DNA of 64,000 bases from Nitrosopumilus sp. (GCA_963662625.1 OY759726.1:1376001-1440000), one strand, 5' to 3'. Positions 9,501 to 9,807 are shown, numbered from the stretch's first letter. The notes: generated by a model not told the origin, from the sequence alone. Numbers and translations: made by a program.

Positions 9501-9807
9501 GCGCCGTCTGCCCGCCGTACGCCAGCATGATCCCGTCGGGCCTCTCCTTCTCTATTATCGATTCCACGTACTCCGGCGTGACTGGCAGCAGGTACACCTG
9601 GTCGGCGAACCTGGTGTCCGTCTGTATGGTGGCGATGTTCGGGTTGATGAGGATGCTCTTCAGCCCGTCTTCGCGTATGGCCTTGAGGCACTGGCTTCCG
9701 GAGTAGTCAAACTGGCGGCCGTTTTAGCGGCTTTCGCCGGCTTCTCCGATTTTTATTGCCCCGCTACCAAGCACGAGGAGCTTGCTTAACGACTCATTCC
9801 TGGGCAG
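6544..9807 (-). CDS. carB: Carbamoyl-phosphate synthase large subunit, interrupted by a 21-nt putative intron (exons 9807-9733 and 9711-6544; 1080 aa if spliced)
   Basis: Two ATP-grasp halves plus MGS domain. The N-terminus PRNESLSKLLVLGSGAIKIGEAGE|FDYSGSQCLKA continues upstream of the ORF-track start in the same frame across a TAA-containing insert. Confidence 0.93.
9712..9732 (-). other. Putative bulge-helix-bulge (relaxed HBh') mRNA intron in carB
   Basis: mRNA reads GGCG-AA^A-GCCG-CUAAAA-CGGC-CGCC-AG^U; removal gives GGC GAA UUU GAC (G-E-F-D). Confidence 0.8.

Follow-up and report, generated by a model that had tools for sequence, protein, structure and literature searches.

A predicted tRNA-type intron in the carB pre-mRNA of ammonia-oxidising archaea

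The gene for the large subunit of carbamoyl phosphate synthase (carB), located in a 64,000-nt stretch of archaeal DNA (hereafter the window), is interrupted by 21 extra bases which we interpret as an archaeal tRNA-type intron residing in a pre-mRNA and belonging to the bulge-helix-bulge (BHB) class in its relaxed HBh' form. We put the probability of this reading at roughly 0.88. The carB message is very probably spliced; the cutting and joining, and the enzymes responsible for them, are what we infer from the RNA layout, its conservation among relatives and the gene content of the host.

The interrupted carB gene and its genomic setting

The window comes from a host assembly consisting of one closed contig of 1.86 Mb (99.5% complete). 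Both an archaeal amoA and an archaeal SSU rRNA are encoded in this genome, and the host is therefore an ammonia-oxidising archaeon. The 5' part of an archaeal SSU rRNA gene lies at window positions 63402-64000, where it is interrupted by the window end. Translation of the minus-strand carB frame gives ...LVLGSGAIKIGEAGE, then SR(stop)NGRQ, then FDYSGSQCLK..., with the in-frame TAA at 9726-9724 falling inside the extra bases (Table 1). The product of the downstream exon matches the TIGR01369 profile (carbamoyl-phosphate synthase large subunit) with 1355.7 bits across profile positions 25-1051 of 1052. Because the match begins at position 25, exactly positions 1-24 are missing from it, and these are supplied by the 25 codons of exon 1. 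An earlier note on this DNA had described a 21-nt insert with an in-frame TAA between the E and FDYSG of carB, and every element that it named was found in place. The same note had named a second intact carB or an assembly error as outcomes that would undo its proposal, and neither came to light. carB is single-copy in the host genome, where the next-best matches are other ATP-grasp enzymes (E 8e-12 and weaker), and the stretch 9400-10000, insert included, is free of differences and joints in Logan contigs from 3 runs of 1 study (which may be the source sample).

Upstream, carA directly precedes carB in 59 of 59 loci. The start of carB in the host seems to be a CTG codon, assigned putatively in Table 1. 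The head of the host gene offers no ATG, GTG or TTG start, and a GGAGG motif at 9821-9817 is situated 5-9 nt ahead of this codon, which is codon -25 counted from the splice site. Among the 59 loci, codon -25 is CTG in 16 (all of them from family f1), ATG in 18 and TTG in 21, and in several of the CTG loci the frame ahead of the splice site lacks a canonical start.

Table 1. Positions in the window of the carB exons, the predicted intron and the elements of its predicted RNA structure
Feature	Position	Strand	Description
carA (small subunit)	9794..10966	-	TIGR01368, 428.6 bits; 14-nt overlap between its end and the putative carB start
carB exon 1	9733..9807	-	25 codons, putative CTG start (9807-9805) to GAA (9735-9733); encodes ...LVLGSGAIKIGEAGE
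21-nt intron (predicted)	9712..9732	-	third base of the 5' bulge (A), GCCG-CUAAAA-CGGC, CGCC, first two 3'-bulge bases (AG)
carB exon 2	6544..9711	-	1055 codons + stop, first residues FDYSGSQ; frame open to 6544
Distal exon-exon helix, 5' strand GGGGCA	9757..9762	-	pairs with UGCCUC 9690-9685; in MFE fold
Outer exon-exon helix, 5' strand UCGGAG	9744..9749	-	pairs with CUCCGG 9703-9698; in MFE fold
Central helix H, 5' strand GGCG	9735..9738	-	exonic (Gly GGC + G of GAA); pairs with intronic CGCC 9717-9714 (H')
5' splice-site bulge AAA	9732..9734	-	3 nt between H and h'; predicted cut 9733/9732
Inner helix h' GCCG/CGGC + 6-nt loop CUAAAA	9718..9731	-	GCCG 9731-9728, loop 9727-9722, CGGC 9721-9718
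3' splice-site bases AGU	9711..9713	-	directly after H', without a stacked outer helix; predicted cut 9712/9711

RNA structure, cut positions and constraint on the flanking codons

In the minimum free energy (MFE) folds of 46 nt and of 101 nt around the insert alike, the helix GGCG/CGCC, the bulge AAA and the hairpin GCCG/CGGC are reproduced exactly. The single-sequence fold is modestly better than chance (z about -2.1, with 6 of 200 shuffles as stable), so the structural weight rests on relatives. We therefore turn to 54 insert-bearing loci from 53 genomes, which were parsed without alignment by anchoring on the exon edges. One order of elements is found in all 54: exonic GGCG (once GGUG), a 3-nt bulge, a hairpin, H' and the trinucleotide A-N-U. 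Throughout this set the 5' bulge is exactly 3 nt long (AAA, AGA or AAC), the h' stem of 4-10 bp begins immediately after it, the central helix H contains 3-4 pairs, and A-N-U stands directly after H'.

A covariance model was built from seventeen of the 21-nt forms, and 51 distinct insert-bearing sequences together with 6 intronless ones were aligned to it. On this alignment 98.5% of the pair cells hold standard pairs, a value reached by 0 of 500 shuffles, and slid-partner controls leave 15-62% of cells paired; because the alignment was fitted to the structure in the model it leans towards structure, the alignment-free parse agrees with it, and since the insert-bearing sequences are related to one another these counts overstate the independent support. 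The inner helix h' is paired in 100% of cells, and three of its four modelled pairs show both-sided changes, in 43 cells. For H the figure is 97.1%; a single cell is changed on both sides (from C-G to U-A, locus L032), and 6 of the 51 sequences have a G x A mismatch at the outer pair. The outer helix UCGGAG/CUCCGG is paired in 96.8% of cells without any both-sided change; it was recovered unprompted by RNAalifold, which also supports two pairs of the distal helix. The earlier note had proposed aligning carB 5' ends across relatives in search of inserts at the same site with compensatory pairing, and that is what the alignment returned. The opposite outcome, orthologous inserts devoid of conserved pairing, which the note had accepted as fatal, runs against both the common layout at 54 of 54 loci and the pairing in 98.5% of cells.

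In two papers (PMC6379350 and PMC4090602), a BHB motif is a 4-bp helix flanked by 3-nt bulges, and a motif with one closed bulge is classed as relaxed HBh' or hBH. The host insert shares with the strict hBHBh' form a central 4-bp helix (GGCG/CGCC) and a 3-nt 5' splice-site bulge between this helix and h', and a second 3-nt bulge closed by a stacked outer helix is present neither in the consensus fold nor in the host MFE fold. After H', the consensus fold has 5 nt unpaired opposite 1 nt and the outer pairing starts further out, and in the host MFE fold AAGC pairs with GUUU beside the 3' site, an arrangement that pairs the G and the U flanking the predicted 3' cut. The strict form was rejected because the 3' site is not closed. 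The combination of central helix, one closed bulge, inner helix and open second site that characterises the relaxed HBh' form is found in 54 of 54 loci, and the label HBh' given in the earlier note fits, the 5' site being canonical and the 3' site lacking a stacked closing helix. Other classes of intron were considered as well. Self-splicing group I and group II introns were ruled out on size, an insert of 18-48 nt standing against a ribozyme core of hundreds of nucleotides; a scan of the window with Rfam gathering thresholds found only a tRNA and an SSU rRNA. Assignment as a cbf5-type intron by host gene was rejected, the host gene being carB (TIGR01369).

Splicing endonucleases cut BHB substrates after the second bulge base. 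Symmetric cuts remove an equal number of bases wherever they fall, so the reading frame alone leaves the cut position unfixed, and it is the encoded residue that fixes it. A cut after bulge base 2 yields GEAGE/FDYSG at 54 of 54 loci; shifting the cut to follow base 0 or base 1 turns the Glu into Asp at 11 of the 54, and shifting it to follow base 3 replaces the Phe by Ile or Leu at every one. No symmetric cut other than that of the second-base rule, on which the earlier note had relied, restores Glu-Phe across all 54 loci. Insert lengths range from 18 to 48 nt and leave a remainder modulo 3 of 0 in 23 loci, 1 in 19 and 2 in 12. An in-frame stop occurs in all 23 inserts of in-frame length and is differently placed between lineages, either in the loop or as the last codon (..CGC TAA); such stops might protect against translation of unspliced message, or might reflect shared descent. 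Taking codon, length and stop together, the insert is to all appearances left untranslated by the ribosome.

The flanking exons carry a further signal at their synonymous sites, which we examined in 32 insert-bearing and 9 intronless carB genes of family f1. Third positions are invariant in all 32 insert-bearing genes at codons -6 (ATC), -5 (GGA), -2 (GGC), +2 (GAC) and +3 (TAC), and nearly invariant at codons -10, -9, +4, +6 and +8. These positions are variable in the 9 intronless genes, where the third base of codon -2 is A in two, T in five and C in two; the Gly codon GGC is thus present in 32/32 insert-bearing genes versus 2/9 intronless ones. Sites further out vary in both sets (1-2 bits), and the protein sequence of exon 1 is kept in all loci while its synonymous sites vary. 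The frozen sites belong to three pairings, namely the central helix, UCGGAG/CUCCGG and GGGGCA/UGCCUC. For the two exon-exon helices the support consists of this constraint, without both-sided changes. On these comparisons the coding sequence apparently does pay for the RNA structure with frozen synonymous sites.

Distribution of the insert among relatives

In a first set of 40 relatives plus the host, which provided 30 carB loci, the insert is present at the identical codon boundary in 24 and absent in 6. A wider sample of the class, comprising 401 genomes, was searched with a degenerate pattern that describes both exon edges and allows a gap of 0-40 nt between them. This pattern matched 323 of the 401 genomes, its reversed control matched 0, and with the gap set to 0 it matched 93; since 323 genomes are pattern-positive and 93 of them gap-free, 230 genomes carry the insert. 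These carriers are distributed as 150 genomes plus the host in family f1, 69 in f15, 4 in f4, 3 in f10 and one each in f13, f2 and f18. In family f15 an insert of 18 to 48 nt is found in 59 of 61 genomes. Five genomes flagged as unpublished (G158, G247, G298, G340 and G377) are counted in these tallies, and no claim depends on a single one of them. Within a second order of the class carB is found in 8 of 36 genomes, among them G083, where the same flanks enclose a 23-nt insert. On these counts the insert is widespread and evidently old, kept in most of the ammonia-oxidising archaea sampled.

Intronless genes are scattered over the sample, with 61 of 84 genomes in genus g14, 4 of 4 in g15, 5 of 8 in g41, 1 of 5 in g4, and 6, 5, 3 and 5 genomes in families f9, f10, f14 and f15, respectively. 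A tree of the masked exons proved unreliable, the members of one genus being scattered across it, and gains and losses are accordingly followed only through genus and family tallies. The five intronless genomes G219, G230, G237, G258 and G262 (genus g48 of family f15) were inspected by eye and have the Gly codon GGC before the junction and GAC after it; these genes look like cases of recent, precise intron loss. Two genomes (G324 and G402) each gave two pattern matches, those in G324 being a 21-nt and a 20-nt insert on contigs C10 and C35, which would mean a second carB copy or else a mixed bin. Many members of the class that do not oxidise ammonia, from families f23 (0 of 17 genomes), f19 and others, gave no carB match with this query, several of those genomes being incomplete. 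A genome-wide motif search for HBh' inserts that fuse open frames returned 81,247 raw hits and 9,035 after a frame filter; the long open frames of a G+C-rich genome make such a search uninformative.

Processing enzymes, alternative explanations and relation to known introns

The host genome encodes two EndA paralogs of 180 and 188 aa which are 32% identical and each contain the N-terminal and catalytic Pfam domains, PF02778 and PF01974. Their genes lie at about 1333.0-1333.6 kb and 434.4-435.0 kb of the host contig. Their pairwise alignment shows a position with a His in one paralog only. Judged by the Tyr-His-Lys triad, one paralog is presumably the catalytic subunit and the other the structural one. 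An RtcB ligase is also present (584.7 bits). PMC4090602 gives alpha2-beta2 as the endonuclease type in Thaumarchaeota, which together with the two paralogous subunits suggests that the host has an (alpha-beta)2 enzyme. Relaxed motifs are, according to PMC6379350, cut efficiently only by the (alpha-beta)2 and epsilon2 types, and the host thus combines RtcB with an endonuclease that is probably of a type capable of handling relaxed motifs.

A tRNA in the same window provides a comparator. The Rfam alignment places ~20 extra bases of the tRNA-Val(CAC) at 34840-34744 (minus strand) in the variable loop, which is a non-canonical position. This insert (about 34795-34776) presents UGCG, UAA, GGGG-loop-CCCC, CGCA and AAG, i.e. 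the element order seen in carB, so the organism has a tRNA that would need the same kind of cut. ARAGORN listed short introns of 13, 14, 16, 41 and 49 nt in host tRNA-Ser, Phe, Ser, Met and Tyr, respectively; its intron boundaries are uncertain and many of its long 'introns' are clearly false, and only the Rfam-confirmed tRNA-Val is used here.

In the proposed pathway, the carB transcript would fold such that exonic GGCG and intronic CGCC form the 4-bp central helix. This would place the 5' splice site AA^A in the 3-nt bulge between the central helix and the intron hairpin, and the 3' splice site AG^U in the three bases following CGCC, the latter being held in position by the imperfect exon-exon pairing (UCGGAG/CUCCGG and GGGGCA/UGCCUC). 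A two-subunit splicing endonuclease would then cut each site after the second base, and RtcB would ligate GGCGAA to UUUGAC. The ribosome would read GEAGE/FDYSG across the junction to give the full-length product of 25 + 1055 residues. We take splicing to be constitutive, and nothing in these data favours regulation.

Several other accounts of the insert have to be weighed against splicing by EndA and RtcB. That carB is simply a pseudogene, or its insert an assembly or sequencing error, would explain the in-frame TAA and the absence of an ATG, GTG or TTG start from the head of the host gene. However, this account has to contend with a closed genome in which the interrupted gene is the sole carB, with an insert that is identical in the contigs of 3 runs, with a full-length exon-2 product scoring 1355.7 bits next to an intact carA, and with a site at which 230 genomes show an interruption, the protein sequence of both exons being preserved; because of this conservation we regard a pseudogene or an error as excluded for practical purposes. 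Alternatively the mRNA might never be cut, the ribosome skipping the insert (bypassing of the T4 gene 60 type) or recoding it by readthrough or frameshifting. The hairpin in the insert and, in the 21-nt forms, the in-frame stop soon after the last sense codon are compatible with such a process, and the T4 gene 60 bypass likewise acts on a short gap in essential coding sequence that goes untranslated and contains a hairpin and a stop. That system differs, though, in having matching take-off and landing codons and a fixed gap length, whereas in carB the GAA or GAG codon that precedes the insert is matched by the insert's final codon in 0 of 54 loci and the gap spans 18-48 nt. Lengths that fall into all three modulo-3 classes rule out a single fixed frameshift or readthrough, and neither the helix-bulge-hairpin geometry nor the success of the BHB cut rule at 54 of 54 loci would have a role in bypassing. 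We consider bypassing or recoding highly improbable.

Somewhat less remote, and still very unlikely in our estimation, is that the hairpin is processed by another nuclease or ligase, or that the gene is expressed in two pieces, as a 25-residue peptide and a restarted protein. The 3' site departs from a canonical closed bulge, and the part played by EndA and RtcB is deduced from their presence in the genome, both of which leave room for this account. Against this account, the 5' half has exactly the geometry that PMC6379350 depicts for EndA substrates, and the tRNA in the same window would need the same kind of cut; the first 38 codons after the insert in the host contain no ATG, GTG or TTG, and GEAGE/FDYSG is one structural element in the intronless proteins. 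A different kind of proposal accepts splicing and adds to it a regulatory gate or a relic immunity insert. This is compatible with the main reading and is consistent with the retention of the intron across families and at least two orders, and with the ~60 nt of exon carrying frozen synonymous sites; but several losses have occurred without visible cost (93 intronless genomes over g14, g15, g41, g4, f9, f10, f14 and f15), and no homing endonuclease gene lies between carA and carB in any of 59 loci. Profiles LAGLIDADG_1 and LAGLIDADG_3 gave no match in the host genome. We judge such an additional role unlikely. Slightly less likely again is a fuller and more speculative version, in which a once-mobile element entered GEAGE/FDYSG as the immunity partner of a homing endonuclease, outlived that endonuclease, was inherited through the ammonia-oxidising archaea, and now couples the synthesis of carbamoyl phosphate (for arginine and pyrimidine) to the tRNA-splicing enzymes as a checkpoint. 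The reading that we favour remains a constitutively spliced, relaxed BHB intron, and each sequence-based check of the earlier note's interpretation came out in its favour.

An intron in the cbf5 pre-mRNA of Crenarchaeota was reportedly described by Watanabe in 2002 and by Yoshinari in 2006. In Yokobori 2009 (PMC2738675), cbf5 has the only archaeal pre-mRNA intron with confirmed splicing, in agreement with the earlier note, which had cited cbf5 as the classic mRNA intron of this type; the reference list of a 2025 endonuclease paper (PMC12397907) contains only the cbf5 work for pre-mRNA. The cbf5 genes of Cenarchaeum symbiosum and Nitrosopumilus maritimus are listed with 0 introns in a table of PMC2738675. 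A full-text literature search, whose coverage leaves out most subscription journals, found no description of a carB intron. As characterised in PMC2738675, the cbf5 intron of Desulfurococcales and Sulfolobales resembles the one in carB in being small, in having a protein-coding host gene, in belonging to the BHB type and often being relaxed, and in its patchy occurrence among relatives with gains or losses. It is removed by a tRNA-splicing endonuclease of the two-subunit type, as the carB intron would be too. The two differ in that the cbf5 intron belongs to Crenarchaeota and its splicing has been shown experimentally (PMC2738675), whereas the carB intron belongs to ammonia-oxidising archaea and its splicing is predicted from sequence. 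A closer structural parallel is found in relaxed HBh' tRNA introns, which like carB have a central 4-bp helix, one well-formed 3-nt bulge, an inner helix and an open second site, and which are cut by (alpha-beta)2 enzymes; unlike these, the carB intron has a messenger as its host RNA, and the exon parts of its motif are coding sequence. The carB insert is a predicted relaxed BHB intron whose host gene and lineage are both new.

Introns in archaeal protein genes are extremely rare, and carB would add a second gene to the list, this time for a central metabolic enzyme. For annotation, the expected consequence is that gene callers would call carB truncated or broken in these genomes. With inserts of 18-48 nt that are present or absent within single genera, the carB loci also constitute a natural series for the study of intron loss and of what the splicing endonuclease needs in an mRNA. 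The organisms concerned, the ammonia-oxidising archaea, matter for the global nitrogen cycle and include cultured members, and in most of those sampled here the production of a full-length carbamoyl phosphate synthase large subunit would very probably pass through a tRNA-type splicing step.
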